Shown: in pieces, positions 5,804-45,642 of the stretch
Layout: every line of letters starts with the position of its first letter
Position numbering within the stretch: position 1 is the first letter of the stretch
Assembly: GCA_964600985.1 (NCBI GenBank)
Contig: CAZRJR010000002.1
Coordinates: 40,867-104,866 of the forward strand
DNA from: an uncultured Candidatus Saccharibacteria bacterium
GTDB taxonomy: Bacteria > Patescibacteriota > Saccharimonadia > CAILAD01 > JADZBC01
Length of the DNA stretch: 64,000 bases
Direction of reading: 5' to 3'
Notes under the pieces: generated by a model
Told to the model about the DNA's origin: nothing
The model's input: the letters and a program-made list of their open reading frames with translations, nothing else
Database searches by the model: none
Made by a program: the position numbers and the translations under genes

Positions 5804-7141
5804 ATGAAATTCTTACGCAAACACAAAGCTACTGTAGTCGCGGTTGGCGTAGCCCTGGCTATACTAGTGGGCCTAGCCGTTATGGTACCCACTACACCCC
5901 AGAATGCCATTTCGGTCGAGGGTATCGAGCCTTCTGGTTCGCGCGTGGACTTCCCTGCCGAGCCTATTACGCTTACGTATTGGCGCACCATAGATGGCAC
6001 CACTCCGTTTGACGACATTATAAAGGACTATAATGCAATTCACCCCAATGTAACTATCGAGCTCAAAAACCTTGACTACGCAGGCTACGATAAGCAGTTA
6101 ACCGAGGCGGCCAAGACCGGCAAGCTACCCGACCTGTACTCGATCGATCAAGACTGGATGAACCGTTACCAGGGTTACTTTGAACCCGCACCAGCTACAG
6201 TCTACGACGCCAGCGAGGTCAAGAGTACCTTTGTACCTACCGTGGCCAATAAGTTGGTTGACGGCCAGGTAGTGCAGGGTGTGGCCTACGGCGTCTCTAC
6301 CTTAGGCTTGTTTTACAATCAAGATATGTTGACTAAAGCTGGTATATCTAAGCCACCCACTACCTGGCAGCAGCTCATGGACAATACGCATAAGCTAACG
6401 TTTCGTAGTGGCAACGACATAACGCAGGCCGGGGTGGCGCTGGGCAATGCAAATGTGAGCGACTACACTGCTATTACCTCGGTGCTTATGCAGCAAAATG
6501 GTGCTACTATGACCAATAACCCACCTACTCAGGCGACCTTCAATAAGCCAGATAGCAAGGGGTATGCCTCGGCGGCCAAGGCTATGAACTTTTATAGCAG
6601 CTTTGCTAAACCAAGCAGCGCGAATTACTCCTGGAACGACAAGCTTGGTAGCTCGCTCGACGCGTTCAAGGCCGGCAAGCTAGCCATGCTAATCGACTAT
6701 GCCTATAGGGCGCCGGAGATCGACGCTGCCAATCCAGCACTTAACTACAAAATGACAGCGCTGCCCCAGGTAGATAGCACCAAGCCAGTGAACGGCGCAC
6801 AGTTCTGGGTGGAGCAAGTGAGCAAGTCTAGCAAGAACACCGAGGTAGCCTGGGACTTCTTGCGATTTGCCTCTACCCGCACCCAAATGAACCGCTACAG
6901 TATTGCCACCTACCGACCAGCCAGCCGTAAGGACCTCGTAGCCCAACAGTCGCACGACAAGTACTTAGCGCCGTTTGCCAAGCAGATTGCTAGCTCCAAA
7001 GTTTGGTATAAGGGTAATAGCTACAATGTGGACGGGATCTTTGCCGATATGATCGGTGCAGTGTTGGGCGGGGGCGATGCTCAAGCGGCGGTGGATACGG
7101 CGGCTACGCGAACTACGCAGGAAATTGCCCGAAACCAGTAA
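5804..7141 (+). CDS. ABC transporter extracellular solute-binding protein (family 1, sugar-type), orphan
   Basis: 445 aa with an N-terminal TM/signal anchor and conserved SBP_bac_1-like stretches (LTYWRT, DQDWMNRY, GVAYGVSTLGLFYN). No permease or ATPase genes adjacent. Confidence 0.7.
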   Translation: MKFLRKHKATVVAVGVALAILVGLAVMVPTTPQNAISVEGIEPSGSRVDFPAEPITLTYWRTIDGTTPFDDIIKDYNAIHPNVTIELKNLDYAGYDKQLTEAAKTGKLPDLYSIDQDWMNRYQGYFEPAPATVYDASEVKSTFVPTVANKLVDGQVVQGVAYGVSTLGLFYNQDMLTKAGISKPPTTWQQLMDNTHKLTFRSGNDITQAGVALGNANVSDYTAITSVLMQQNGATMTNNPPTQATFNKPDSKGYASAAKAMNFYSSFAKPSSANYSWNDKLGSSLDAFKAGKLAMLIDYAYRAPEIDAANPALNYKMTALPQVDSTKPVNGAQFWVEQVSKSSKNTEVAWDFLRFASTRTQMNRYSIATYRPASRKDLVAQQSHDKYLAPFAKQIASSKVWYKGNSYNVDGIFADMIGAVLGGGDAQAAVDTAATRTTQEIARNQ

Positions 7142-8937: not shown

Positions 8938-9029
<92 letters not shown>

Positions 9030-9154
9030 TGAAGTTGAACACACTATAGTGTAGCCTAAACCAACCTGGAATTCTAGCCTACATTTTATGGTGCCCAGTT
9101 TTCCCCTTGTGCAAAAGCCTGTTGATAAGTTCGCATGGCGTTCGCAAAAAATCG

Positions 9155-9270
9155 CCAGAATGTATTGACGGGCATACGAATGGCAATGGTATAATTAAAT
9201 TGTCACCAGTGAGGTGGCATCCTAGGTAGCGTCCGTTCACGGACAACCTACATAAGGAGTCCCTATGGGC
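9155..9270 (+). ncRNA. Candidate small RNA: promoter (TTGACG-19-TGgTATAAT, extended -10) to intrinsic terminator
   Basis: -35 at 9155-9160 and -10 at 9180-9185. About 78 nt downstream is a hairpin AAGGAGTCCC-TAT-GGGCTCCTT followed by TTTTTT. No plausible ORF lies between them. Confidence 0.3.
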
Positions 9271-9341
9271 TCCTTTTTTAGTTTTAATTCCTGCCCTCTA
9301 GTTGTATCGGTGAAGCAACCAGAATACATACAGTACCTACC

Positions 9342-9515
9342 CTATTCCTTAGGGACTTTGCCGCTAGCTTGCCGTGCCTCGGATAAGCCAATTGCAACAG
9401 CCTGCTCGCGGCTCTGCACCTTCTTTTTGCTTCGGCCAGAAAGCAACTTGCCCTGCTTGAATTTACGTATAGCCTCCGCTACCTTTTTGCTCGCTAATTT
9501 ACCATACTTTGCCAC
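9342..9515 (-). CDS. Small conserved basic protein (57 aa; KGG/general-stress-like small protein family)
   Basis: GTG start preceded by AAGGGGG. Product MAKYGKLASKKVAEAIRKFKQGKLLSGRSKKKVQSREQAVAIGLSEARQASGKVPKE resembles a widespread family of small proteins of about 55-60 aa. Not in the ORF track because it is under 60 aa. Confidence 0.45.
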   Translation of the reverse strand: MAKYGKLASKKVAEAIRKFKQGKLLSGRSKKKVQSREQAVAIGLSEARQASGKVPKE

Positions 9516-9595
9516 GCAACCCCCTTGTTTATCCCATAATACCCCTAGGTAGGTCGGATGTGCTGCGAAATATATTACATACCACTCAAATCGGT

Positions 9596-10234
9596 CTAAC
9601 GCTCCTCGAGCAGGGCTGTGAGCTTTTTACCATTCACGGTAAACGCCTGGGCTTTATAGGTAACCACTCCTTGGCGTTGCAGGTTCTTTAGTTCTATAGC
9701 GGTTGTTTCGCGGGTAAGGCCGATGAAGTTCGCAAAGTCCTGCTGGGTTAGGGGCAGTTTGAGTTCGATGGTGTCGTTGTCCCCCGCTATGCCAAATCTT
9801 CGGCATAGGAATTCTAGGGTATAGAGTACTTTGTCGCAGGCTCGGGATTGCTCGAGAGCGTGCATGCGAAGCTGGTGACTTATGTGCCGCTCTACATAGT
9901 AGTCCAAGGCTTTGTACATCATGTCAGGATTTTGCTTGAGGTAAGCTATGTAGTCCTCGCGGGGCACCATATAGAGTTCGGTATCGGTAAATGCCTCGTA
10001 AAAGAAGTAAGAATGGTCGATTTTGCCAAACACCCAGCCAATCGGGAAAACCTCGTAGGTAAGGTCAAACAGCACTGGGCGCTCTTCGCCCGCGGCGGTG
10101 ATGTTAAACACCTTCACAAAGCCCGACCGCACCACGTAGGCGTGTTCTGGCCGATCACCTTGCTCGATTATGGTGCTTCCGCGCGGAAACTTCTTGGATG
10201 GATAATTGGCCAAAAATGCGTCAAACTTATCCAT
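9596..10234 (-). CDS. Crp/Fnr family transcriptional regulator
   Basis: cNMP-binding beta-barrel plus a C-terminal HTH (LTQQDFANFIGLTRETTAIELKNLQRQGVV). Confidence 0.8.
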   Translation of the reverse strand: MDKFDAFLANYPSKKFPRGSTIIEQGDRPEHAYVVRSGFVKVFNITAAGEERPVLFDLTYEVFPIGWVFGKIDHSYFFYEAFTDTELYMVPREDYIAYLKQNPDMMYKALDYYVERHISHQLRMHALEQSRACDKVLYTLEFLCRRFGIAGDNDTIELKLPLTQQDFANFIGLTRETTAIELKNLQRQGVVTYKAQAFTVNGKKLTALLEER

Positions 10235-10280
10235 ATGCTACTCCCTTATAGTCGCAGTATAGGGAGTTTAGGGTGCTAGA

Positions 10281-10580
10281 TCAATCTATACGTCGTGGTG
10301 ATGTCCCCTCTAGCAGTACCGCAATCAAGTAGCCAATGAGCGCATACACTACCAAGGCGATAAGCACGGCAGTCTCAAGTGGTCGCCCCAAAACAGTATA
10401 GTTGGGCAATATATTACTAAACGGTGCACTTAAATTCCCCGCTAAGCGCCCAATCCATGCTACGAATGGTTGCGCTGGATTGGCGCCAAGCAAAGTAAAT
10501 GCTAACTGTAAGCTCAAAATCAGCTCGAAGATGCCGAAGATTGTATTAGATATAACGAGCAAAACTCGGTTTGGACTCAT
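10281..10580 (-). CDS. Small membrane protein, YggT-like
   Basis: 99 aa, two TM helices, pattern consistent with the YggT family. Low certainty. Confidence 0.4.
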   Translation of the reverse strand: MSPNRVLLVISNTIFGIFELILSLQLAFTLLGANPAQPFVAWIGRLAGNLSAPFSNILPNYTVLGRPLETAVLIALVVYALIGYLIAVLLEGTSPRRID

Positions 10581-10614
10581 GTATATTCTCCTGGTTAAGG
10601 CTTGGCATAAGGAC

Positions 10615-10758
10615 CTAGGCTCGGCGTCGTGCTACGAGGTCATATATAAAGATTGCGATGGCCACCAGCAGTACCAAATGGATGATACTCCCCCCAATGT
10701 GCCCCAGTAAACCCAAAAACCATAATACGATCAGTACTATTGCTATAGTGCTTAACAT
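10615..10758 (-). CDS. lmo0937-family small membrane protein (47 aa)
   Basis: GGAGG RBS. Product MLSTIAIVLIVLWFLGLLGHIGGSIIHLVLLVAIAIFIYDLVARRRA matches the lmo0937/DUF5670 pattern. Below the ORF-track size cutoff. Confidence 0.5.
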   Translation of the reverse strand: MLSTIAIVLIVLWFLGLLGHIGGSIIHLVLLVAIAIFIYDLVARRRA

Positions 10759-10969
10759 ACTTCTCTCCTCGCTTACTAGTACATATAATGACGCGATGTA
10801 CCCACTTGGTCAGTGAGATTTCTAACCCAAACTTAGAGCGCATGTTATATATCTCATAGCCATCTCGATTGGCCTGCAGTATGCTGAAAAATGTTAAGCG
10901 GAGGTAGGGCGTGAAACTGCAAAACAAACCACCAAGAGTATGTAAATTTACTATACACAAGGAGGAGAC

Positions 10970-11143
10970 ATGCAAAGTTTCATGACACAGACCAAAACAA
11001 AAGCACGTAGCCGATCGGCGGCTATTCCTGGGAGTGCAGAATATCTAGAGTTGCTCGACGAAATAGCTACTAAATGGGCAGTTAAAGCCGATCGATTAGC
11101 GCGCCGCAGGCGAGCCCATGTAAGAGCCAAACCATTACACTAA
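10970..11143 (+). CDS. Small basic hypothetical protein (57 aa)
   Basis: AAGGAGGAG RBS 8 nt upstream of the ATG. Product MQSFMTQTKTKARSRSAAIPGSAEYLELLDEIATKWAVKADRLARRRRAHVRAKPLH. Confidence 0.4.
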   Translation: MQSFMTQTKTKARSRSAAIPGSAEYLELLDEIATKWAVKADRLARRRRAHVRAKPLH

Positions 11144-11166
11144 CTTACTTACTACAAGGAGGCACT

Positions 11167-11334
11167 ATGGCGAGTTCTGAGGAACTTCAAGAACAAGCGC
11201 AGGCTGTTCGGGATCAGGCAGTAGAAAAGCAAGGTGAAGCTAAGGCGCTCGACGAAAAGGCAGACGAGCTTGATAGTCTTGCCGAAGAAGCGGCCCAGCT
11301 TGAGGAGGAACAGGAGGAAGTCCTCGAAGAGTAA
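11167..11334 (+). CDS. Small acidic coiled-coil hypothetical protein (55 aa)
   Basis: AAGGAGG RBS. Product MASSEELQEQAQAVRDQAVEKQGEAKALDEKADELDSLAEEAAQLEEEQEEVLEE. Followed by a hairpin at 11352-11382. Confidence 0.4.
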   Translation: MASSEELQEQAQAVRDQAVEKQGEAKALDEKADELDSLAEEAAQLEEEQEEVLEE

Positions 11335-11437
11335 ACTAACTGGTTTGACGCCTGGAAAGAAAGAGACCCTCGATGGAGACGAGGGTCTCTTTCGAGGGTC
11401 TGGGGTCGCAGCAAGGAGTCGGTCGAGTTTTTCCTGA

Positions 11438-12055
11438 CTAGGTTTTTCGTTGTCTCGCCAAGCGGCGATTAATGCGACGAGCGTTTTTGGCCTGTGCGTA
11501 TGCCCACAGCACAAAAGCTAGGTATCCCGCACCCATCCCTAGCCCCAGAATGCCGCTCATGAGCGGCGTCCCTGGACTCGATGCAGGCCAAAAATCAGAG
11601 GGGTCTTCTAAGTAGACCCGGCTACTGTTATCAGACACCCAAATAGTTATCGTGTCGCCTTTGCGAGCTCCCTCCTTGAGCGGGAGCTTTACCCAGTGGG
11701 GTCTTTCTGAGTCGGGCGAAAAGTACTTGTACCACAGCCAATATGCTTGTCCGTGCTTCGTGGTGTCTATGTCTGCAAGGGTTGCCACAACGGGCTCCCA
11801 TTCCTGGCGCCGAAGGGTGTCGCGTTGGGCCAGTTCTTGGCCCATATGCAGCCCCACATACACAGGGACTGCCAGGCAGGCCAGGCATATCAGCCATACC
11901 CCAAGCCGCGCAATCTGCACACCTCGATCTACGAGGATCTTGGCAACTACCAGCGGAGCGCCGATAACACATCCCAGCATCCACAGGGCTGTGTATATGA
12001 AGTTGACAAGAAATGACCTGTGTTGCAGGTTGGTAGTAGTACGGTACTCCTTCAT
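11438..12055 (-). CDS. Hypothetical membrane protein (3 TM), moderately GC-rich
   Basis: 205 aa. First gene of a moderately GC-rich (about 56%) minus-strand segment. Confidence 0.45.
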   Translation of the reverse strand: MKEYRTTTNLQHRSFLVNFIYTALWMLGCVIGAPLVVAKILVDRGVQIARLGVWLICLACLAVPVYVGLHMGQELAQRDTLRRQEWEPVVATLADIDTTKHGQAYWLWYKYFSPDSERPHWVKLPLKEGARKGDTITIWVSDNSSRVYLEDPSDFWPASSPGTPLMSGILGLGMGAGYLAFVLWAYAQAKNARRINRRLARQRKT

Positions 12056-12241
12056 GTGCGCTCGCCTTTCTACGATCAGACCAGAAGGTATCTTGGAGTA
12101 TAGGCTATTTGTGGATTATTTCAAGCTTGTAGTTGACTAAGACCCCCCTTCTCTTAAAACAAAGAAGCGACCCAAAAGGATACTCCCTGAGTCGCTTGTG
12201 GGGCCGGCCGTGTGCCGCTTACCCCTCGCCTCGATGCAGTT

Positions 12242-12547
12242 CTAGTCAGACCACGTATCGGTAAACCTACAGAGCGTTCGCCACCGGTCATTCTTCACTA
12301 CCGAGTAGAACTTCTCACATTTTCCTCCGCCGATGCTCCAGTGGGCTTCCAGTATGCCTGCCTCTTGGAGTTGTCGGCACATGTGGCTGATGCTGCTGGT
12401 GTCGATGCGGCGCCCCAGGGGTTGTTGGCTCCATAGAGTTGTGGCGGTGAATCTGCCCCGCTGCTTCCTGATCAGGGCCAGGAGGAGAGGGGCATGCTTG
12501 CGCCTCAGGAACCAAGCGATGGTTTGCAGATCAGTGTCTTTTTTCAC
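12242..12547 (-). CDS. Winged-helix transcriptional regulator (ArsR/SmtB-like)
   Basis: 101 aa. The pattern LLLALIRKQRGRFTATTLWSQQ...ISHMCRQLQEAGILEA suggests an ArsR-type HTH. Followed by a terminator hairpin at about 12150-12200 on the minus strand. Confidence 0.45.
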   Translation of the reverse strand: MKKDTDLQTIAWFLRRKHAPLLLALIRKQRGRFTATTLWSQQPLGRRIDTSSISHMCRQLQEAGILEAHWSIGGGKCEKFYSVVKNDRWRTLCRFTDTWSD

Positions 12548-12561
12548 GGCTCACTCCTTCT

Positions 12562-12981
12562 TCAACCTGCCGCTGCACACATTTTCGCTACACCCTCGGA
12601 CGTAATGATCAGGTTGAGGTCGTCCCTAACCCGCACGTAGGCAAAAACCGTGCCGTCTTGGTACGCGTAGTGGAGCACCAGTTCACAGCCTCCGTTCTTG
12701 ACCGTAACGACGTTGTTGGTGCTGTCGTTGCTAATCACTTTGAGGCCGTCGGCCTTCAGCTGACTTTTGACGAACCAATCGTCATAGTGGTCGCCACTGC
12801 CCCACATGCCCAATACCAGAGCGATAAAGGCTGCGATGACGCAGATGAAAGCCACTCCGCCACCGTCCTTCTTCACGAAGAAGAAGGCGAGGATGCCAGC
12901 AACAAGAAGTACAAGGCTCGCACCAAATGCGGCAGCTTCCCCGCCACCGACAAGGTGATTGCCCAGAAAGTGAAAAGTCAA
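12562..12981 (-). CDS. Hypothetical membrane protein (2 TM plus a soluble C-terminal domain)
   Basis: 139 aa ORF immediately upstream, on the same strand, of the ArsR-like gene. Confidence 0.4.
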   Translation of the reverse strand: MTFHFLGNHLVGGGEAAAFGASLVLLVAGILAFFFVKKDGGGVAFICVIAAFIALVLGMWGSGDHYDDWFVKSQLKADGLKVISNDSTNNVVTVKNGGCELVLHYAYQDGTVFAYVRVRDDLNLIITSEGVAKMCAAAG

Positions 12982-13036
12982 AGTACGCTCCTTAGATCAG
13001 GAGATCAGGTTTGATCTCGCAGTAATACAATAGCAC

Positions 13037-14107
13037 CTAGAATTCTATTTGCAAGATGCTCTTAAATCCCTGGGTGGCTCTTAGCTCCAAGTAGCGCCTA
13101 AGCAAGCTCTGTAGCTCCGAATGTTCTCGACTAACTACATGTGTGTGCGTTTCGGTTAGAGCAGCACTTTTAATCTGCTCCATTCGGTCTATAAGTTTCG
13201 CCTCCTCGGTACTAAGCCGGTTTTCACACTGGTAAAAGCATAGGGTATAGTTGTGCCCGTATACCTTTTCAAACAACTGCTTGGATCGCGCCATATGGAA
13301 TCCACTTGTCACTATCGCTAGGGAGCGCCAGCCGTTAGTGTCGACTATTTTCTTGCAATAGGTGGCATTCTCGAAAGTATTTTCAGATAAGCTCTCGGTA
13401 ACGATCTGATCTTCGCCCACTCCCAGCGATAGCGCATATTGCTTCATGGATTCGGCCTCGGTTAGACGGGGTGTGTAGCTGTGTAGGCGAGAGACTCTTC
13501 CGGATAGAACTATCTTGTCCGCTTCGCCATCACGTACCATTTGCACGGCCCGGCGCACGCGACTCTTGCCCTCCTCTGGGGTAATCCCATCTTCTGTGAC
13601 GTCAAATCCCAGCACTATTACGGCATCAAAAGGCTCGGTGCTTAGAAGCTGATTGGTAATTTCTGCTGTCGGCAGAGTAGCGTCAATGGTTTTGTCGATT
13701 AGCCCAGCTGCGAGTATCTCCTCGTGGTTCTCTAGCTGACCTTTTAGCCAAGGAGTAGCGTCTTCGTAGCCTTCGTGCTCCATGCGGTCATGGTTGCGGC
13801 GTAGCATCTCGTCGTAGCTCAGCTTGAGTTGAACGACAGTAAAGCCATGATCTTTAAACATCTCTACTTGTGACAAGGGGTAAAAGTAATTTGCAAAGAA
13901 TATTATGTGCTCTTGCTTTGCTACTTTTTGATAAATTTCGGGTATAAGTACGTCGTCTTTGTAGTCGTTATCACTAGGCCAAACGCCACCGTTAGCCGCC
14001 AGGATCTCCTCATCAATCTCTGAAGCATTTAAGTTTGTATGCTGGCGCAAGTACCTGACAAGCGTAGTTTTGCCAGAAAGCTGCGGGCCTATAACGAGAA
14101 TCTTCAT
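13037..14107 (-). CDS. Fusion protein: N-terminal P-loop NTPase/kinase-like domain plus C-terminal DUF218 (YdcF/ElyC/SanA-like) domain
   Basis: Walker A MKILVIGPQLSGKTTLVRYL at the N-terminus. The C-terminal half (VIVLGFDV...IVLSGR...TENTFENA...LAIVTSGFHMARS) follows the DUF218 pattern. Confidence 0.6.
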   Translation of the reverse strand: MKILVIGPQLSGKTTLVRYLRQHTNLNASEIDEEILAANGGVWPSDNDYKDDVLIPEIYQKVAKQEHIIFFANYFYPLSQVEMFKDHGFTVVQLKLSYDEMLRRNHDRMEHEGYEDATPWLKGQLENHEEILAAGLIDKTIDATLPTAEITNQLLSTEPFDAVIVLGFDVTEDGITPEEGKSRVRRAVQMVRDGEADKIVLSGRVSRLHSYTPRLTEAESMKQYALSLGVGEDQIVTESLSENTFENATYCKKIVDTNGWRSLAIVTSGFHMARSKQLFEKVYGHNYTLCFYQCENRLSTEEAKLIDRMEQIKSAALTETHTHVVSREHSELQSLLRRYLELRATQGFKSILQIEF

Positions 14108-14120
14108 GAGTCTAGTATAA

Positions 14121-14155
14121 CAAAGCGAAACCCGGCGAAGCCGAAATCTCGCCGG
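14121..14155 (-). terminator. Intrinsic terminator (CCCGGCG...CGCCGGG) for the GC-rich gene 14187-14609
   Basis: 7-bp GC stem followed by a U-rich tract on the minus strand. Confidence 0.5.
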
Positions 14156-14186
14156 GGGAACCCCACTCTTAACTTGCTGAGCCTCA

Positions 14187-14609
14187 CTACCACATGCTGC
14201 GACGAGGCAGATCTCGCCGAACTTCGTCTTCCCAGGGGTAACTGCGACCAGGGTTGTCGCGATAGTTGTAACGCCCTCGTGGACGACGAGGAGCTCTACC
14301 GAGGTGCGGATGCTGGGTGATCAGCCTGTCGATGGTCTCGATGGCAATCGACTTCGTGGTGTTGTTGGATGGGCCCGGAGCCTGTAGCGGGCGACGGAGT
14401 TCACGCGCTCTCTCTCGGCTGATGATGCCGCGCTTCACCAGTCCGTGAAGGTCGAAGCTGAGCGCCTGCTTCACCCTGCCCTCACTTGGGTAGGGCTTTT
14501 TCGGGTGGTATGGGTATGCATCACTGTAGAGCCCCACGGGGCCTCCTTGGCGAATCAGGAACACTAGCCAACCTGGCAAGTGTTGGAGGTATTTTATAAC
14601 TCTGGTCAC
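14187..14609 (-). CDS. Hypothetical protein in GC-rich island
   Basis: 140 aa, about 62% GC, Arg/Pro-rich. Coding status moderate. Confidence 0.35.
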   Translation of the reverse strand: MTRVIKYLQHLPGWLVFLIRQGGPVGLYSDAYPYHPKKPYPSEGRVKQALSFDLHGLVKRGIISRERARELRRPLQAPGPSNNTTKSIAIETIDRLITQHPHLGRAPRRPRGRYNYRDNPGRSYPWEDEVRRDLPRRSMW

Positions 14610-14716
14610 ATGTGGTCAATGAAGTATTTCAATTGGTGTCTTACCACCTAAACCCACAACAATAGGTTGTGAACTTGGGTAGTGCCAGTTTTGAGGGTCT
14701 GGCAACCTTGCTACGA

Positions 14717-15334
14717 CTAGGAGTCGGTGTCCGATCGCAGCTTACGGCTCTGCTCCCATGCCCTGAGCTCGGCCAGGCTGAACGGGTTGAGCCGCTCGTG
14801 GCGGCAGTACCACCACGCTACCTTCATGGCAGCGAAGTGGAGAACGCACACCACGGTGGCGATTCCTGCTCCGATCAGCGCGGCCTCACTCCAGAGCTGC
14901 TGGTGTTCTGCTGCGGTCAGTGGCTGGAGTGGCTTGCCGGTGGCAGGGTCGATCTGACCCGATGCAACCACCTGGTTGACCATCGAGTTGACGATGTAGT
15001 GCCACATGTCACCGACCACGATGGCTCCAGTCAACACGACCAGGCCATAGCAGGCCAGCACCTGGCGCTTGTGCCACACCACGTTCTCCTGGTAGGAGGC
15101 GTCGAGGGCACGCTTGCCGAAGCACTTGCTGAGCAACACCTCAGCGAAGAGGTGGACCCCACCGTCTTCACGGCGCCACCACTGGGCCAGCTTGATGCAG
15201 ATCACGCGAGCGGCGTAGTAGGCCAGGGGCAGATAGAGCAGGTATGCAAGGTACTTGTACATCATGTGCGATTTTCTCCCGCACTCTAGGGCGAATTTGA
15301 TTCCGCCGAAATACAACGGCATACATAATAGCAT
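14717..15334 (-). CDS. Hypothetical membrane protein in GC-rich island
   Basis: Several TM helices. The start is probably the internal MMYKYLAYLL (about 15265). Confidence 0.4.
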   Translation of the reverse strand: MLLCMPLYFGGIKFALECGRKSHMMYKYLAYLLYLPLAYYAARVICIKLAQWWRREDGGVHLFAEVLLSKCFGKRALDASYQENVVWHKRQVLACYGLVVLTGAIVVGDMWHYIVNSMVNQVVASGQIDPATGKPLQPLTAAEHQQLWSEAALIGAGIATVVCVLHFAAMKVAWWYCRHERLNPFSLAELRAWEQSRKLRSDTDS

Positions 15335-15573
15335 AAGCGTTAATGTATGTCAAGTACAACAAAGACCCCTCTCGGGGTCTAGGCAAATTATATAAGTCAC
15401 TGCCGTAGCTTACGGGATGATTTTAGAACCATCTACTTACAAGGCAAGAACCTGCCTTCATACTGAGTAATGAGATTGCACTTTACAAAATTTGAGATAA
15501 CCATAAGTAAGTGGCAGTTTACCAAATTATAGTAAAGACTCTTTTTAACAGGTCAGAAAAGTTGCATACTATT

Positions 15574-16326
15574 TTAGTTGACTTCTGAAGCTAATAGTGG
15601 CTGGACTCCTCCATCAACAATCAAATATTGTCCGGTAATATAGGATGATTTACTGCTAATAAAGAATTCAATAGAATCCGCAATTTCGGTTGGATCAGCT
15701 ATTCTCTTAAGTAACTGCCTGTTTGCAAGTCTCTTTATCTCTTCTGGACTTAAATGTTCTGTTAGCATTCTGGTATTTACAGCGCCTGGTACAACTGCAT
15801 TAATACGGACTCTATGCGGAGCTGCTTCAATTGCAAGTGATCTTACCAGTCCAAGTAGTGCAGCTTTAGAAGACGCATAAGCAGCGAGGCCGGCAGATGT
15901 AACTATTCCGTGTATAGAGCCAACCGCAACAACAGAAGGCCAATTTTGATTTCCCTCTGTACTATTTGCAAGTATTGGCAAAAGCTTTTTAACTACAATC
16001 CACGTATTCTTAACGTTAACTCTGAATGTGTAGTCCCATTCTTCCGAAGTCATTGCATTAAATGGTTTAACAAATTGCGCTGCAGCACACAGCACAATCC
16101 CGTTAATGGTTTTATGTTTCTTGATGCGGTTAAAAATCTCGTCCATGTTGTCTTCATTCGCGACGTCAGAATTATAGAACTCGTCTATCCATATACCATC
16201 GGGGGCAGTTTTGTCTATGCCTATAACATGCCAGCCTAATTGATGGTATTTTTTTGCAGTGGCTAAACCTATACCACTTGATGCCCCTGTTATAAGTATG
16301 ATTTTATTTGCCACTGATTTGTACAT
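15574..16326 (-). CDS. SDR family NAD(P)-dependent oxidoreductase
   Basis: TGASSGIG glycine-rich motif and the usual SDR catalytic residues. AT-rich (about 37% GC) segment. Confidence 0.75.
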   Translation of the reverse strand: MYKSVANKIILITGASSGIGLATAKKYHQLGWHVIGIDKTAPDGIWIDEFYNSDVANEDNMDEIFNRIKKHKTINGIVLCAAAQFVKPFNAMTSEEWDYTFRVNVKNTWIVVKKLLPILANSTEGNQNWPSVVAVGSIHGIVTSAGLAAYASSKAALLGLVRSLAIEAAPHRVRINAVVPGAVNTRMLTEHLSPEEIKRLANRQLLKRIADPTEIADSIEFFISSKSSYITGQYLIVDGGVQPLLASEVN

Positions 16327-17164
16327 TTGTTGGGTATTCCCCATTTCTGATTGCATGCATAAATACTAACCTAATAGCCTTAAATGACTTAAAAACCTGA
16401 ACAAGTGATGGTTTATACTCCGCTCGTAATTTCATCATTCGTGGTATTGCTTTAAGGTGGGGAAATAGTTCTTGATAGTATTGGACTTCTTCGGTGAGAC
16501 CCGTTGCCTTTCCCGTGAGACTAAAATAGCTGCTATGAAGAGCCCACTTGAGAGCAGACAGTGAATACTTGGTTGCGTGAGATGTAAAAGGATAGATTAT
16601 AAGTGCGTAAGCATTTAGCACCCAGTACATTACAAAGTTTCTCCAAACTTTTATCTTGGATATGGGTGATATTTCCGAACAGGGCTTAAGTAAATCTACA
16701 CCATAGATTACCCTAGCTGATAACTGTATGTTCTTATACCCTATATCAGTTGCCCATAATGGATTATCCAAGATAGCAGAGTCAAGCCAACTTTCTGATT
16801 TAAAAATTTTCCCCGTATCTTCATTGATGAATTCTGATTCTGTACATACAAATACGGATTTATATTGGGCACCAATTCGATCGAGGACTCTCACTACTCT
16901 ACCCTTAATATTTGTGGGCACGGGTCTAATTCCCATATCCTCTTCAATTTTGTACAGAACTTGTTTTAATGCACTTATGTCTGATAGAGATGTTTCATCT
17001 TGAACGGCTACAATAAGATCTAAGTCTGATAACTTATCTATATCCTGCTTAGCTAAACTCCCAAATAATATTATCGAAACAATATCGATTTGGTTTTTTC
17101 TCGCAAATTCAAGTACCCGTTTCTTTATTAGGTCAAGATCTGATGTATTCTTATTTTTTGCCAT
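16304..17164 (-). CDS. Nucleotidyltransferase-domain protein (Pol-beta superfamily; ANT/Lnu-like or minimal NTase)
   Basis: LFGSLAKQDIDKLSDLDLIVAV GS...DxD motif in the N-terminal 60 aa. 286 aa, AT-rich. Confidence 0.6.
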   Translation of the reverse strand: MAKNKNTSDLDLIKKRVLEFARKNQIDIVSIILFGSLAKQDIDKLSDLDLIVAVQDETSLSDISALKQVLYKIEEDMGIRPVPTNIKGRVVRVLDRIGAQYKSVFVCTESEFINEDTGKIFKSESWLDSAILDNPLWATDIGYKNIQLSARVIYGVDLLKPCSEISPISKIKVWRNFVMYWVLNAYALIIYPFTSHATKYSLSALKWALHSSYFSLTGKATGLTEEVQYYQELFPHLKAIPRMMKLRAEYKPSLVQVFKSFKAIRLVFMHAIRNGEYPTNVQISGK

Positions 17165-17410
17165 GATTGCAGCATATTATATTAAATCTCAAAATTGATG
17201 TCCATTGTGGGCTTGAATGTCTTCATGTCTTTTGGAGATTTCTTTCCGCACTATAAACCTCCTCTCAAAGTCTTCAATAAGGTGCTTGTGTATGGAGTAG
17301 CTTACGAGCTGATATACGAACCACATAAAGCGAAACCCTCTCGAGTCCCGCATGTAGAATGCGAAACCCAAGAGGGCGGGTGCTGGGTGAACCAGTAGTG
17401 TTGGGATGGG

Positions 17411-17878
17411 TTAGGTGTCCGTGGTCACCGTCTGCTCGACATCGTCGGTGGTCTTGTCGAAGAGGTCGTGGTACATCCGGTGGAGACGCTCATGCTCGGA
17501 GGCGACGTACTCGCGCTGGGCGGTCCTCGTGGTGTGCGTCTTCTCGACGGCGGCCACAGCCACACTGTACTCGGGCTCGATGAAGGCCATGTACGGCGCA
17601 TCGTTCTCGGTCGGCACGTAGCCAGGGTGGTCGGCCTCCCATGCGGCCTGCTTGGCCCGCAGGGCGGACATGGCATCGCACTCCTCAGCGCGAGCCAGGT
17701 GGAAGTCGGCCTCCAGCTTGCTCATCTCCGCACGGGTGCGCTCGAACTCAGCCATGTAGCCGAGTGAGTCAGGCGGAAGGTCTGCAGTCGCCAGGTTCGA
17801 GGGGTCCATCGGTGCGCCGAGGTCGATGATGATGCCACCTCCGATGCCGATGCCGAAGATTTCTTCGGTGAGTCCCAT
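17411..17878 (-). CDS. Hypothetical acidic protein in a GC-rich (about 65%) insert
   Basis: 155 aa. Chosen over the overlapping alternative frames because of length and a start with an upstream purine-rich stretch. Flanked by direct repeats (17258-17323 and 18008-18066). Confidence 0.35.
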   Translation of the reverse strand: MGLTEEIFGIGIGGGIIIDLGAPMDPSNLATADLPPDSLGYMAEFERTRAEMSKLEADFHLARAEECDAMSALRAKQAAWEADHPGYVPTENDAPYMAFIEPEYSVAVAAVEKTHTTRTAQREYVASEHERLHRMYHDLFDKTTDDVEQTVTTDT

Positions 17879-18043
17879 GACTCTACCTAACCTTTCTCCC
17901 CGTTCGGGGAGGCAACCTAAGTAGCTTTAGGCTATCTTCCCGAGGGGAGGGAATATAACTTAACATATACCAAGCCATGTGTCAACGCATTTACCCTTGA
18001 GCAAAAAGACTCCTCTCGGAGTCTTCAATAAAATGCTTATGTA

Positions 18044-18120
18044 TGGTGTATCCGGAGGGATTCGAACCCCCGACCCCCAGCACCGCAAGCTGATGCTCTA
18101 TCCAACTGAGCTACGGATAC
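18044..18120 (-). tRNA. tRNA-Arg (anticodon reads GCG)
   Basis: GTATCCG acceptor stem, D-arm GCTCAGTTGGATAGAGC, anticodon stem TCAGC/GCTGG with loop TTGCGGT, T-arm GGGGGTTCGAATCCCTC, encoded CCA. The backbone aligns closely to bacterial tRNA-Arg(ACG), but position 34 is G. Confidence 0.7.
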
Positions 18121-18456: not shown

Positions 18457-19212
18457 CCGTAGCGCGCGCAGCAGACGGTCGATTAGATCATTGCGGGGTG
18501 GAACTTTGGGTAGCACACTTCCCATGAGGTCCTCTACTTTGTCCTCCTCGCCCTCTTGGATCGGCAGCGACACGAGCGTGCCAAATTGTTTGCTTGGCAC
18601 CAGCTCAAAAACCCGCTGGCCATAGTCGCTGATTTCGTAAAACGCCGAAAAGTGATCAAAGCGGTAAGATTTGTCGCCCACATACACGCCGTGGGTGGTA
18701 ATGGAGTAGGTGAGCGTACGAGGCTTGCGCTGCGCGTAAATCACGAGCGCGATACACATGAGCACCAGTAGGCCAATGGTAAGGTACTGGCGGGTGTATA
18801 TGGCCAGCCCGATCATTGCAGTAAAGAACAGAGCGAGCAGAAAGTACCAACCAGCCGGCTTGTTGGTAAAGGTGAACTCGGGGGCGTTCCAGCTCATAAG
18901 GGCTGTTTCGGCGGTAGGGTTAACTTGCTCAGGTGCTTCAGACTCATTGTGTGGCTCATCGCCAAGGTCGGCGTCCTGCATGCTCTGTGACTCATTTTGA
19001 AGGCTCTGGGGCGCAGTTTCGGTCGAGGGCGAGTAAATAGGCGGCGCTGCGGTTTCGGGCGCGCTCACGGCCTGTGGTGCGGTCATAGCGCCTATGCTTG
19101 TGGGTTGGGGCGCAGTAGCCGGCTCGCTGCTTGTAATCGCCGAGTCAGTATTGGCTGGCTCTGCCGCAGCCGGTCTGTAGGTTACGCCTGGTTTTGCTTC
19201 ATCGTCTTGCAT
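18451..19212 (-). CDS. Hypothetical membrane protein with a Pro/Ala/Thr-rich N-terminal region
   Basis: 253 aa with two central TM helices. Confidence 0.5.
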   Translation of the reverse strand: MQDDEAKPGVTYRPAAAEPANTDSAITSSEPATAPQPTSIGAMTAPQAVSAPETAAPPIYSPSTETAPQSLQNESQSMQDADLGDEPHNESEAPEQVNPTAETALMSWNAPEFTFTNKPAGWYFLLALFFTAMIGLAIYTRQYLTIGLLVLMCIALVIYAQRKPRTLTYSITTHGVYVGDKSYRFDHFSAFYEISDYGQRVFELVPSKQFGTLVSLPIQEGEEDKVEDLMGSVLPKVPPRNDLIDRLLRALRF

Positions 19213-44517: not shown

Positions 44518-45642
44518 ATGGCAGCGGATACGAAGGCACAAATTAAGGTGCTGATTCGTCCCACGGGGGTTGGTATAAACGGCAAGAACCCTTGGGATAT
44601 TGCAGTACACAACGAGAAGTTCTACGATCGGGCGCTGGCTGGTGGTTCGCTCGGCCTGGGTGAGGCATATATGGATGGCTGGTGGACGAGTAAGGACCTA
44701 GAAGAAACGATTTATAGGCTGATATCGGCAGGAATAGATAGAAAGGTGCGCCCCAATTTAGTGTTGGCGCGCCACTATGTGGCAGCCTCGCTACGCAATC
44801 ACCAGTCGGTACGGCGGGCCAAGCGCAACGCCCAGGCGCACTACGACATTGGCAATGACCTCTACGAACCCATGCTCGGAGCAAGTATGGCTTATAGTTG
44901 CGGTTACTGGAAGAACGCCAAGACGTTGGACGAAGCACAAGAAGCCAAATACGAGCTCATTTGCCAGAAGTTGAAGCTCAAACGCGGCATGCGAGTACTC
45001 GACATTGGCTGTGGATGGGGTGGCCTGGCAATGTATATGGCACGCAAATACAAAGTCGAGGTTACCGGTGTAACCCCGGCGCGCGAACAGGCCAGCTACG
45101 TACGCGAGCATGCCAAAGGACTCGCGGTAAAGGTGTTGGAGCAAGATTATCGCGAGGTGAAGGTACGGCAAAAGTTTGATCGCGTAGTGTCGGTCGGCAT
45201 GGCCGAGCACATTGGCCCCAAGAACCTACCAAGCTACTTCGCCAAGGTCGACGAAGTTATGAAGAACGACGGCATATTCCTCCTTCACACCATTGGGAAT
45301 AACCGCACTACTCGTACCAATGAACCTTGGATGAATAAGTACATTTTCCCGGGTGCCGTGCTGCCATCGATGGCAAGTGTAGCTCGTGCTTGCGAAGGCG
45401 GCTTTGTAATTGAGGACATGCATAACTTCGGTCCGGATTATGAAAAAACGTTGCTGGCTTGGTACAGGAACTTCAAGAAAGCTTGGCCAAGCTTGGAGGA
45501 GAAGTACGGCGAGCGGTTTTATAGAATGTGGGAATTCTACCTACTGTCGTGCGCTGCGGCTTTCAAGGCTCGCCATATACAGCTGTGGCAGTTTGTAATT
45601 ACTAAGCCTGGTGGCCAGGCTCGTTACGACTCAGTCCGCTAG
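44518..45642 (+). CDS. cfa: Cyclopropane-fatty-acyl-phospholipid synthase family methyltransferase
   Basis: SAM motif VLDIGCGWGGLAMYMA and the CFA-synthase fold pattern. Confidence 0.85.
   Translation: MAADTKAQIKVLIRPTGVGINGKNPWDIAVHNEKFYDRALAGGSLGLGEAYMDGWWTSKDLEETIYRLISAGIDRKVRPNLVLARHYVAASLRNHQSVRRAKRNAQAHYDIGNDLYEPMLGASMAYSCGYWKNAKTLDEAQEAKYELICQKLKLKRGMRVLDIGCGWGGLAMYMARKYKVEVTGVTPAREQASYVREHAKGLAVKVLEQDYREVKVRQKFDRVVSVGMAEHIGPKNLPSYFAKVDEVMKNDGIFLLHTIGNNRTTRTNEPWMNKYIFPGAVLPSMASVARACEGGFVIEDMHNFGPDYEKTLLAWYRNFKKAWPSLEEKYGERFYRMWEFYLLSCAAAFKARHIQLWQFVITKPGGQARYDSVR

Follow-up and report, generated by a model that had tools for sequence, protein, structure and literature searches.

We analysed a 64-kb stretch of an uncultured Candidatus Saccharibacteria bacterium (contig CAZRJR010000002.1; hereafter the window), in which a preliminary description had flagged positions 14108–18120 as a hotspot of insertion at a tRNA-Arg gene. 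Genes and repeat copies are read on the minus strand throughout. In this direction, tRNA-Arg is followed by a spacer and a terminator hairpin (T3), a promoter-like site, a 155-aa open reading frame (ORF), a 19-bp terminator and a repeat copy, c2. Next come a spacer with a decayed terminator (T2), a promoter-like site, a nucleotidyltransferase (NTase) gene, a short-chain dehydrogenase/reductase (SDR) gene and another repeat copy, c1. The rest of the flagged piece consists of a spacer with a third terminator (T1), a promoter-like site, a 205-aa ORF, an intergenic element that we call e70, a promoter-like site, a 140-aa ORF and a terminator, after which a DUF218 gene follows. Coordinates are collected in Table 1.

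The window has a background of 50% GC, and the profile of the flagged piece runs from 61–62% (14200–15250) through 32–42% (15250–17350) to 62–67% (17350–17950). When GC at third codon positions (GC3) was compared with that of the 38 other ORFs of the window, which range from 0.36 to 0.66, the 155-aa ORF stood 4.4 standard deviations (sd) above them and the 205-aa ORF (60% GC) 3.8 sd above, and the NTase and SDR genes (37–40% GC, GC3 0.32) stood 3.2 sd below. The codon usage of the cargo, by which we mean the 155-aa ORF and the NTase–SDR pair, is foreign. Promoter-like and terminator-like sites bracket each cargo; the promoter-like sites come from a promoter scan, apart from TTGACA-17-TAAGTT upstream of the 155-aa ORF, which is promoter-like by manual reading and was not called by the scan.

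Three copies of a tRNA-end block and the modules between them

We found three copies of a block made of a pseudo-tRNA 3' end, a spacer and a terminator: c1 (15364–15432), c2 (17257–17324) and c3 (18008–18066); the last of these is the genuine end of tRNA-Arg(GCG). Between them lie two modules, one of 751 nt that carries the 155-aa ORF (module A) and an AT-rich one of 1.9 kb that carries the NTase and SDR genes (module B). Both repeats on which the preliminary description relied, c2 and c3, are real, and the GC-rich segment with the 155-aa ORF lies between them as described; however, c1 was overlooked. The AT-rich composition and the gene content of the NTase–SDR pair were also described correctly, but the pair does not merely lie beside the hotspot, as it is itself a module bracketed by c1 and c2.

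The direct repeat formed by c2 and c3 (17259–17299 versus 18010–18050) matches without gaps at 35 of 41 positions, as compared to 27 of 41 for the best of 40 block-shuffles of the region. The match spans the hairpin, the 20-nt spacer and the CCA-proximal bases and, past a 5-nt indel, a T-loop-like TTCG stretch too, so the similarity, which might have been suspected of stemming from a terminator motif, is more than that of a generic terminator. Copies c1 and c2 agree at 22 of 27 positions (15405–15431 versus 17297–17323) and share the pattern GTAGCTTACG.G.TGAT.T..GAACCA; c1 and c3 resemble each other in their hairpins (Table 1). In the window, the joint pattern GTTCNNANATCNNNNCGTAAGCTAC has exactly two occurrences; 100 shuffles gave none.

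At the far boundaries, c1 and c2 have a T-loop-like TTCG and a CCA-like end, and the 35 matching positions of the direct repeat lie mostly in the spacer and terminator downstream. Both copies share a motif that is not found in the tRNA, GTTCG.A.ATC....CGTAAGCTAC, with the two pseudo-ends of an unrelated array in a related locus (L014, described below), where the 10-mer CGTAAGCTAC recurs twice at the same position. The pseudo-ends of the window, of L014 and of a second related locus (L009) align as one family, GTTCG.A.ATC..(C)CCG....TAC.CCA, and each exceeds the real T-arm in length by 5 nt. A profile made from these pseudo-ends matched only these arrays in the approximately 210 kb of window and related loci that we searched, and it matched nothing in L011, L013 or L031, loci in which tRNA-Arg has no pseudo-end. 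Copy c2 had been taken for a degenerate duplicate of the tRNA end. We found instead that it is an element-type arm, 5 nt longer and with GTAAGCTAC, to which the neighbouring module is joined by its left end.

Each module, read from the tRNA, is thus laid out as a left arm (spacer and terminator hairpin), a promoter-like site, one or two cargo genes, a terminator and a right arm, which mimics the part of a tRNA from the T-loop to the CCA. The copies differ in their state of preservation. The hairpins have folding energies of –14.5 kcal/mol (T3, z –3.7), –7.5 kcal/mol (T2, z –1.1) and –14.6 kcal/mol (T1), and the spacer and hairpin of c3 are the working terminator of tRNA-Arg. The CCA-proximal bases read ACCA in the tRNA (c3), TCCA in c2 and GGCA in c1. 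An Rfam search of the region recognised the tRNA only, and no dyad symmetry was seen by eye in the reconstructed attP.

Table 1. Positions of the features of the flagged piece and of e70 copies in related loci
Feature	Positions	Strand	Evidence or remarks
tRNA-Arg (anticodon GCG)	18044–18120	–	ARAGORN; Rfam tRNA 64.9 bits; intact
Left end of module A (copy c3): spacer 18024–18043, perfect hairpin GACUCCGAGAGGAGUC 18008–18023 (T3), U-run 18003–18007	18003–18043	–	sequence
155-aa ORF, cargo of module A	17411–17878	–	64% GC, GC3 0.84
19-bp hairpin then UUUCGCUUUAU, terminator of 155-aa ORF	17335–17377	–	–34.9 kcal/mol, z –5.2
Pseudo-tRNA 3' end c2, TGGTTCGTATATCAGCTCGTAAGCTACTCCA, attR-type right arm of module A	17293–17324	–	alignments, pattern count, nhmmer E 4e-7
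Left end of module B: displaced spacer and decayed terminator hairpin copy (T2), without U-run	17257–17292	–	85% identity to c3
NTase promoter-like site TGGACA-17-TATAAT	17176–17204	–	promoter scan
NTase, 286 aa, Pol-beta type with C-terminal helical domain, cargo of module B	16304–17164	–	Pfam Polbeta, NTP_transf_2
SDR, cargo of module B, overlapping the NTase stop codon	15574–16356	–	Pfam adh_short_C2 E 1.7e-45
Pseudo-tRNA 3' end c1, TGGTTCTAAAATCATCCCGTAAGCTACGGCA, attR-type right arm of module B	15401–15432	–	alignments, pattern count, nhmmer E 7.5e-8
Putative pre-module-B downstream sequence of the tRNA: spacer and hairpin GACCCCGAGAGGGGUC at 15364–15379 (T1)	15361–15400	–	18/20 match to c3 hairpin; –14.6 kcal/mol
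205-aa GC-rich ORF	14717–15334	–	GC3 0.80; TTGACA-17-TATTAT promoter-like site 15325–15353 (scan)
e70, conserved two-hairpin intergenic element	14630–14714	–	recurrence in relatives, fold
140-aa ORF (116 aa in Logan gene call), 59% GC; terminator-like hairpin 14131–14156 after it	14187–14609	–	
e70 copies in relatives	L011 5513–5602, 6318–6399, 7128–7212; L013 11347–11432; L014 7413–7500		

The tRNA-Arg site in related genomes

Related loci were reached via homologues of the 253-aa gene that adjoins tRNA-Arg. All of them share a frame of ValRS, a TPR protein, tRNA-Ser(GCT), tRNA-Ser(TGA), the 253-aa gene and tRNA-Arg(GCG), which continues in the relatives with a variable stretch of 4–9 kb, tRNA-Ser(CGA), HSP20 and a solute-binding protein. 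Their gene content (type IV secretion pilins, TrbL, FemAB and small genes) fits Saccharibacteria, and one of the samples is from an activated-sludge plant (PMC10949500). In the window, the stretch that varies among lineages, from the end of tRNA-Arg to tRNA-Ser(CGA) (18043–9030), is approximately 9 kb long, more than twice the flagged span.

We found both empty and occupied tRNA-Arg sites among these loci. In L011 (JGI sample 3300056999) the site is empty, and in L013 and L031 tRNA-Arg likewise has no pseudo-end. In L009, which is also from JGI 3300056999, an 8.9-kb element starts exactly after the CCA of tRNA-Arg and has a 16–17-nt repeat of the tRNA end at its far side, and in L010 (sample 3300056788) an 8.0-kb version of the element sits at the same site with a 9-nt repeat. 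The insertion point in L009 and L010 is the same gene, and its 3' end serves as attachment site (attB/attL). The product of the sole recombinase gene of the L009 element is a large serine recombinase that is split, at 11499/11528, into 305 + 251 aa, with Resolvase and Recombinase domains and a zinc-ribbon-like cysteine motif in the translated C-terminal ORF; the Pfam architecture of the serine recombinases of the relatives is Resolvase, Recombinase, Zn_ribbon_recom. The L009 recombinase ORF (10744–11499) abuts tRNA-Arg and has its stop codon inside the tRNA. The right arm of this element reads CGTTCGGAAATCATCCCG...TACACCA and thus belongs to the type of arm seen in c1 and c2.

Locus L014 has the same tandem, integrase-less, single-ORF architecture as the window. 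There, tRNA-Arg is followed by a terminator, a 114-aa ORF, the pseudo-end AATAGTTCGTAAATCGTCCCGTAAGCTACACCA, a spacer with terminator, a 108-aa ORF and a second pseudo-end; the spacer and terminator after the first pseudo-end share 83% identity with what lies downstream of the empty site in L011, and the cargo is unrelated to that of the window. The empty and occupied alleles and the tandem modules of L014 bear out the earlier suggestion of repeated site-specific insertion at the 3' end of tRNA-Arg. The proposed comparison with an empty site succeeded in distant relatives, where empty L011 can be set against occupied L009 and L010, but it yielded no such allele for this organism.

Several further observations concern the tRNA genes of these loci. 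Bacterial tRNA-Arg usually has the anticodon ACG; the anticodon GCG is kept in all relatives fetched (L009–L016 and L031), and the acceptor stem of the window gene shows a compensating change (GTATCCG/CGGATAC versus GTACCCG/CGGGTAC in the relatives). Two Logan contigs from two other samples, L030 (5231–5307) and L032 (5418–5525), both end inside tRNA-Arg at the same base (...GCGGAGCCGAAG), just before the T-arm, as would be expected in an assembly graph if the 3' end of tRNA-Arg had mixed alleles. An ORF for a 618-aa large serine recombinase lies against tRNA-Ser(CGA) and runs through the tRNA in L014 (12451–14307, minus strand) and L015 (8219–10075, minus strand), and tRNA-Ser(CGA) therefore also looks like an attachment site in the L014/L015 lineage. 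In the window, tRNA-Ser(CGA) is at 8938–9029 and has no insertion. A serine recombinase that reads into its target gene from attL is thus present in relatives only (in L009 at tRNA-Arg and in L014 at tRNA-Ser(CGA)) and absent from the window.

Probable accretion of modules and the alternatives

We observed directly the repeats, the build of the modules, the arm motif shared by two lineages and, in relatives, both empty and occupied alleles. From these we conclude that the locus probably arose by tandem accretion of two integrase-less modules at the 3' end of tRNA-Arg(GCG), which serves as attB. The order of insertion, the identity of the recombinase and any remaining mobility of the modules are inferred. 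An attR formed by insertion at a tRNA end would consist of the element arm, a short crossover core and the former downstream sequence, in which case c2 would be the arm of module A joined to the left end of module B, and c1 would be the arm of module B joined to the original downstream sequence. Homology to the relatives resumes directly after c1, at 15300–15362. The ancestral state would have been the tRNA, its spacer and hairpin T1 and the promoter of the 205-aa gene. Module B (17292–15401) would have inserted first and module A (18043–17293) later, between the tRNA and module B, with the left arm of each new module taking over as the tRNA terminator.

This order fits the decay of the copies: the CCA-proximal bases change from ACCA to TCCA to GGCA, and the displaced T2 has lost stem and U-run and does not act as the tRNA terminator any more. 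The left arms of modules A and B are related, as the 85% match of c2 to c3 indicates, and so are their right arms, as the 81% match of c1 to c2 indicates; the two modules therefore appear to be members of one element family with different cargo.

The recombinase would have been supplied in trans or lost. A Pfam search of the module ORFs found no recombinase domain, and no recombinase was found in the 64-kb window either by tblastn with the serine recombinases of the relatives or among 20 further large ORFs, so the preliminary description was right that no integrase remains. The enzyme would therefore be elsewhere in the genome or gone. By analogy with the 8–9 kb elements, the best candidate would be a large serine recombinase like theirs; elements with such an enzyme at the same tRNA-Arg site were found only in distant relatives.

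Several results weigh against accretion. The lack of a recombinase in the window leaves the mobility of the modules unproven. The relatives with empty or occupied sites are distant (54–57% identity in the flanking 253-aa protein), and we found no empty or alternative allele for this organism: both contigs of the closest related assembly (L007 and L008 of GCA_964498655.1) end at the equivalent of window position 18605, 485 nt before the tRNA, and exact-protein look-ups of the window genes returned only window-identical contigs, without allelic variation. Neither the c1/c2 match nor the c1/c3 match alone exceeds shuffles, and the identity of the pseudo-ends to the resident tRNA is short, comprising approximately 7 nt of TAC.CCA plus TTCG. 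The arm motif is sampled in two lineages only, and its matches in viral (0) and metagenome (12) contig collections were at chance level, all 12 being unrelated and mostly from a conserved marine locus. The L010 element is puzzling as well, since it lacks 460 bp on the left and 410 bp on the right as compared to L009 (10810–11270 and 19268–19678). The shortening removes the C-terminus of the recombinase, and the ends still join cleanly to the CCA of the tRNA and to the 9-nt repeat; the difference may reflect a deletion derivative, a nested element or an assembly effect.

Among the alternatives, the one that we take most seriously, although we think it doubtful, is that the modules are decay remnants only, that is, fixed scars left by internal deletion of the 8–9 kb recombinase elements (cis-mobilizable elements, CIMEs, strictly defined). 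In relatives, this site is occupied by elements of full size whose right arm is related, a path from decay to accretion is described in the literature (PMC5704250, PMC3146451), and the missing recombinase would be expected. However, each of the four modules (two from the window, two from L014) forms a tidy unit in which a terminator, a promoter-like site, an intact ORF, another terminator and an arm follow one another; none holds a recognisable fragment of an element gene, and module cargo is unrelated to the genes of the L009 element. It is very improbable that slippage or unequal crossing-over duplicated the tRNA 3' end and its terminator locally, with gene-intrinsic composition and no site-specific integration. 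In favour of such a duplication, GC-rich small genes are stable and conserved in this region of the relatives and the terminator hairpins form a family, but the motif shared by c1 and c2, with its 5-nt longer loop and GTAAGCTAC, is absent from the resident tRNA, this motif accompanies other cargo at the same site in another genome, and the empty and occupied alleles at the exact CCA show that real integration takes place there.

That assembly or binning joined unrelated sequences at short shared repeats is scarcely credible, even though the composition switches sharply at the repeat boundaries. Every junction is spanned by contigs of two separate Logan assemblies (SRR14932662 and SRR14932695) that have 100% identity to the window (L001, 8983–16218; L002, 15369–18555; L003, 16248–18799), and the repeats, at 27–41 nt and 81–85% identity, are too weak to mislead an assembler. 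Thus, the mosaic is not a misassembly.

A more far-reaching form of the accretion reading is that the modules are working miniature cassettes, self-contained for the expression of one or two genes and with a conserved attP of approximately 70 nt made of the pseudo-tRNA and terminator arms, which a trans-acting large serine recombinase captures serially at tRNA-Arg. We regard this as unlikely. If it were true, ultra-small episymbionts would have an integron-like route to sample genes of diverse origin, and e70 may mark a second, older layer of the array.

Cargo, older residents and known parallels

A search of 5.8 billion clustered proteins with the 155-aa protein matched only the protein itself, and a search of 1.84 billion representatives found four remote homologues with 27–44% identity, which makes a family of five known members. 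Given these homologues and the strong GC3 signal, the ORF is a real gene, which presumably came from a high-GC gene pool. The predicted structure is a long helical hairpin with a disordered glycine-rich N-terminus; it had no informative fold match, and the protein had no Pfam, NCBIfam, PADLOC or PHROG match. We considered whether the hairpin is WXG100/Esx-like and rejected this because the loop reads W...HP(G/D) and not W-x-G, no YxxxD/E motif was seen by eye and the fold search gave no useful match. We also found that the two GC-rich islands are not paralogues of nearby ORFs of similar length, and neither the 155-aa nor the 205-aa ORF matched phage genomes in tblastn. The terminator hairpins that follow the 155-aa ORF (17335–17377) and the 140-aa ORF (14131–14156) share the tail GGGTTTCGCTTT, and a 24-nt match to the latter hairpin follows a 59-aa ORF in L014 (9881–9904), so hairpins with this tail may be a shared terminator type for GC-rich small genes.

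The NTase of module B had been called ANT/Lnu-like. This holds for its fold: the AlphaFold model (pLDDT 87.6) combines a Pol-beta NTase domain with a helical bundle and has AadA and AAD(9) as its best structural matches (TM 0.50–0.58, 12–15% identity), and the catalytic G-S ... D-x-D motif is kept, with S30, G35, S46, D47 and D49 invariant. In contrast, membership in the ANT(9)/ANT(3'') family can be rejected, as the protein reaches only 16.9 bits in the curated ANT_9 model NF012212 (NCBIfam; cut-off 340), and the implied function is probably wrong too. The NTase also fails the curated models for MntA (26.7 bits versus 60) and HalB (15.8 versus 190), and PADLOC gave only candidate-system matches to the NTase core; at 286 aa rather than approximately 100–140 aa, and with no HEPN partner, it is probably not an MntA-type antitoxin, HalB or a CD-NTase. 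For the SDR, no NCBIfam equivalog reaches its cut-off.

The NTase belongs to a rare family of 15 clusters, in which its 14 homologues have 37–46% identity. In other small genomes, the homologues form a translationally coupled NTase–SDR pair beside HisRS, a DUF218 gene and tRNA-His; we found the pairing in L033, L035–L038 and L039–L040. The cluster with tRNA-His, HisRS and DUF218 is at 5883–8999 in L033, 3775–6742 in L035 and 6001–9082 in L039, and the link to tRNA-His genes is unexplained. In these genomes, the GC of the pair equals that of the locus (34–47%), indicating that it is a native gene pair in that part of the tree, and a relative of lower GC in the same radiation was probably the source of the pair in the window. 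An aminoglycoside-resistance role is unlikely because, unlike ANT(3'')(9)/AadA and AAD(9), the homologues are native to the chromosome, where they are coupled to an SDR gene and lie close to HisRS and tRNA-His.

The 62% GC island further along had been thought to be a third insertion, but the evidence does not show it to be one. The 205-aa ORF has full-length homologues in L011 (48% identity) and L031 (53–54%), which are 63–65% GC and lie beside a Pirin gene. GC-rich small-gene families (58–67% GC) are kept among the relatives, and ORF-sized peaks of 60–75% GC are normal in the region. Since the homologues are GC-rich as well, the high GC of the 205-aa gene is a lasting trait and no proof of a fresh insertion; the gene is an older conserved resident of the variable region. 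In L011, L013, L014 and L031, the small genes, among them one family of 176–179 aa and another of 185–204 aa, stay at 58–67% GC in genomes of approximately 50–54% GC despite 46–62% protein identity, which is unexplained.

Element e70 (85 nt) has three copies in L011, one in L013 and one in L014, always just after a small ORF in the variable region downstream of tRNA-Arg. It folds as two hairpins, with 97% of cells paired, five pairs with compensatory changes and several conserved G-U pairs, although the covariation counts lean towards structure because the alignment was fitted to the model. The compensatory changes and the conserved G-U pairs suggest an RNA on the minus strand. The element matches no Rfam family; it may act as a small RNA, as a 3'-UTR element or as a cassette boundary of a second kind.

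Of the other genes, the 140-aa ORF has no homologue among the related loci fetched. The genes at 9030–14107 (an AAA_18–DUF218 fusion, 139-aa, 101-aa and 205-aa ORFs and a Crp-like regulator) lack counterparts at the equivalent place in the five related lineages that were fetched, and a search of genome contigs with the 356-aa DUF218 flank protein gave distant Firmicutes matches only. At 44518–45642 on the plus strand, an ORF of ordinary GC3 (0.61) matches CMAS (mycolic acid cyclopropane synthetase, E 7.5e-88), which is notable in a bacterium that may live on mycolic-acid-containing actinobacterial hosts.

The closest precedents for the array are the ssrA islands of Dehalococcoides and CIME accretion; the locus is a hotspot of an ordinary kind, in an unusual organism and of unusually small size. 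The ssrA islands (McMurdie et al., 2011; PMC3146451) are tandem islands with short direct repeats of the 3' end of the target and a conserved non-target motif just upstream of each repeat. At attL they have a large serine recombinase whose stop codon occurs only inside the target gene, and some islands without integration genes have been proposed to be cis-mobilizable elements. The tandem array, the non-target motif and the lack of integration genes are all found here, along with short repeats that may correspond to those of the 3' end, and a recombinase that reads into the target is found in L009 and L014. In contrast to the ssrA islands, the target is tRNA-Arg(GCG) and not tmRNA, the host has a small, probably Saccharibacteria-like genome, the modules are 0.6–1.9 kb with one or two genes and the window has no recombinase.

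CIMEs (Pavlovic, 2004; Bellanger, 2011; reviewed in PMC5704250) have attL on one side and attR on the other, possess no genes for integration or transfer and accrete in tandem. They are decayed integrative and conjugative elements (ICEs) or integrative and mobilizable ones (IMEs) and depend on integrases, of the tyrosine or the serine type, that resident ICEs supply; cis mobilisation has been demonstrated for them. The modules resemble them in being stacked, att-flanked and free of integration and transfer genes, with the arm motif in c1, c2 and the two pseudo-ends of L014 and a resemblance to attR of L009. They differ in that the window holds no partner element and that the modules seem to be compact units of expression, not wreckage. 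The tDNA islands catalogued by Islander (PMC4383910) have a target tRNA regenerated at one end and a displaced fragment at the other; here too, an intact tRNA bounds the array at one end, and c1 and c2 may be such displaced fragments. However, such islands are defined with a tyrosine integrase inside, whereas none was found in the window, and the putative fragments are mostly of element type, with approximately 7 nt identical to the tRNA.

Integron cassettes share with these modules their serial arrangement in one orientation, single-gene units, mixed composition, short conserved sites and a recombinase that lies outside. The modules are nevertheless not an integron: we found no IntI or other tyrosine recombinase and no attI, the boundary blocks are tRNA-like arms and terminators, each unit has its own promoter-like site and terminator, and the array is anchored at a tRNA. 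By eye and without a formal search, no attC-type R''/L''–L'/R' site was recognised in e70.

Genomes of the candidate phyla radiation are tiny, and horizontally acquired islands have been reported from them without a mechanism; a survey of 125 Patescibacteria genomes (PMC12455944) makes no mention of tRNA, integrase or recombinase. The locus described here gives a sequence-level picture of foreign-gene uptake in such a genome, with attB at tRNA-Arg(GCG), candidate recombinases and att sites from relatives, and stacked modules. The attB/attP pairs are possible integration tools for Saccharibacteria, which are hard to manipulate genetically.

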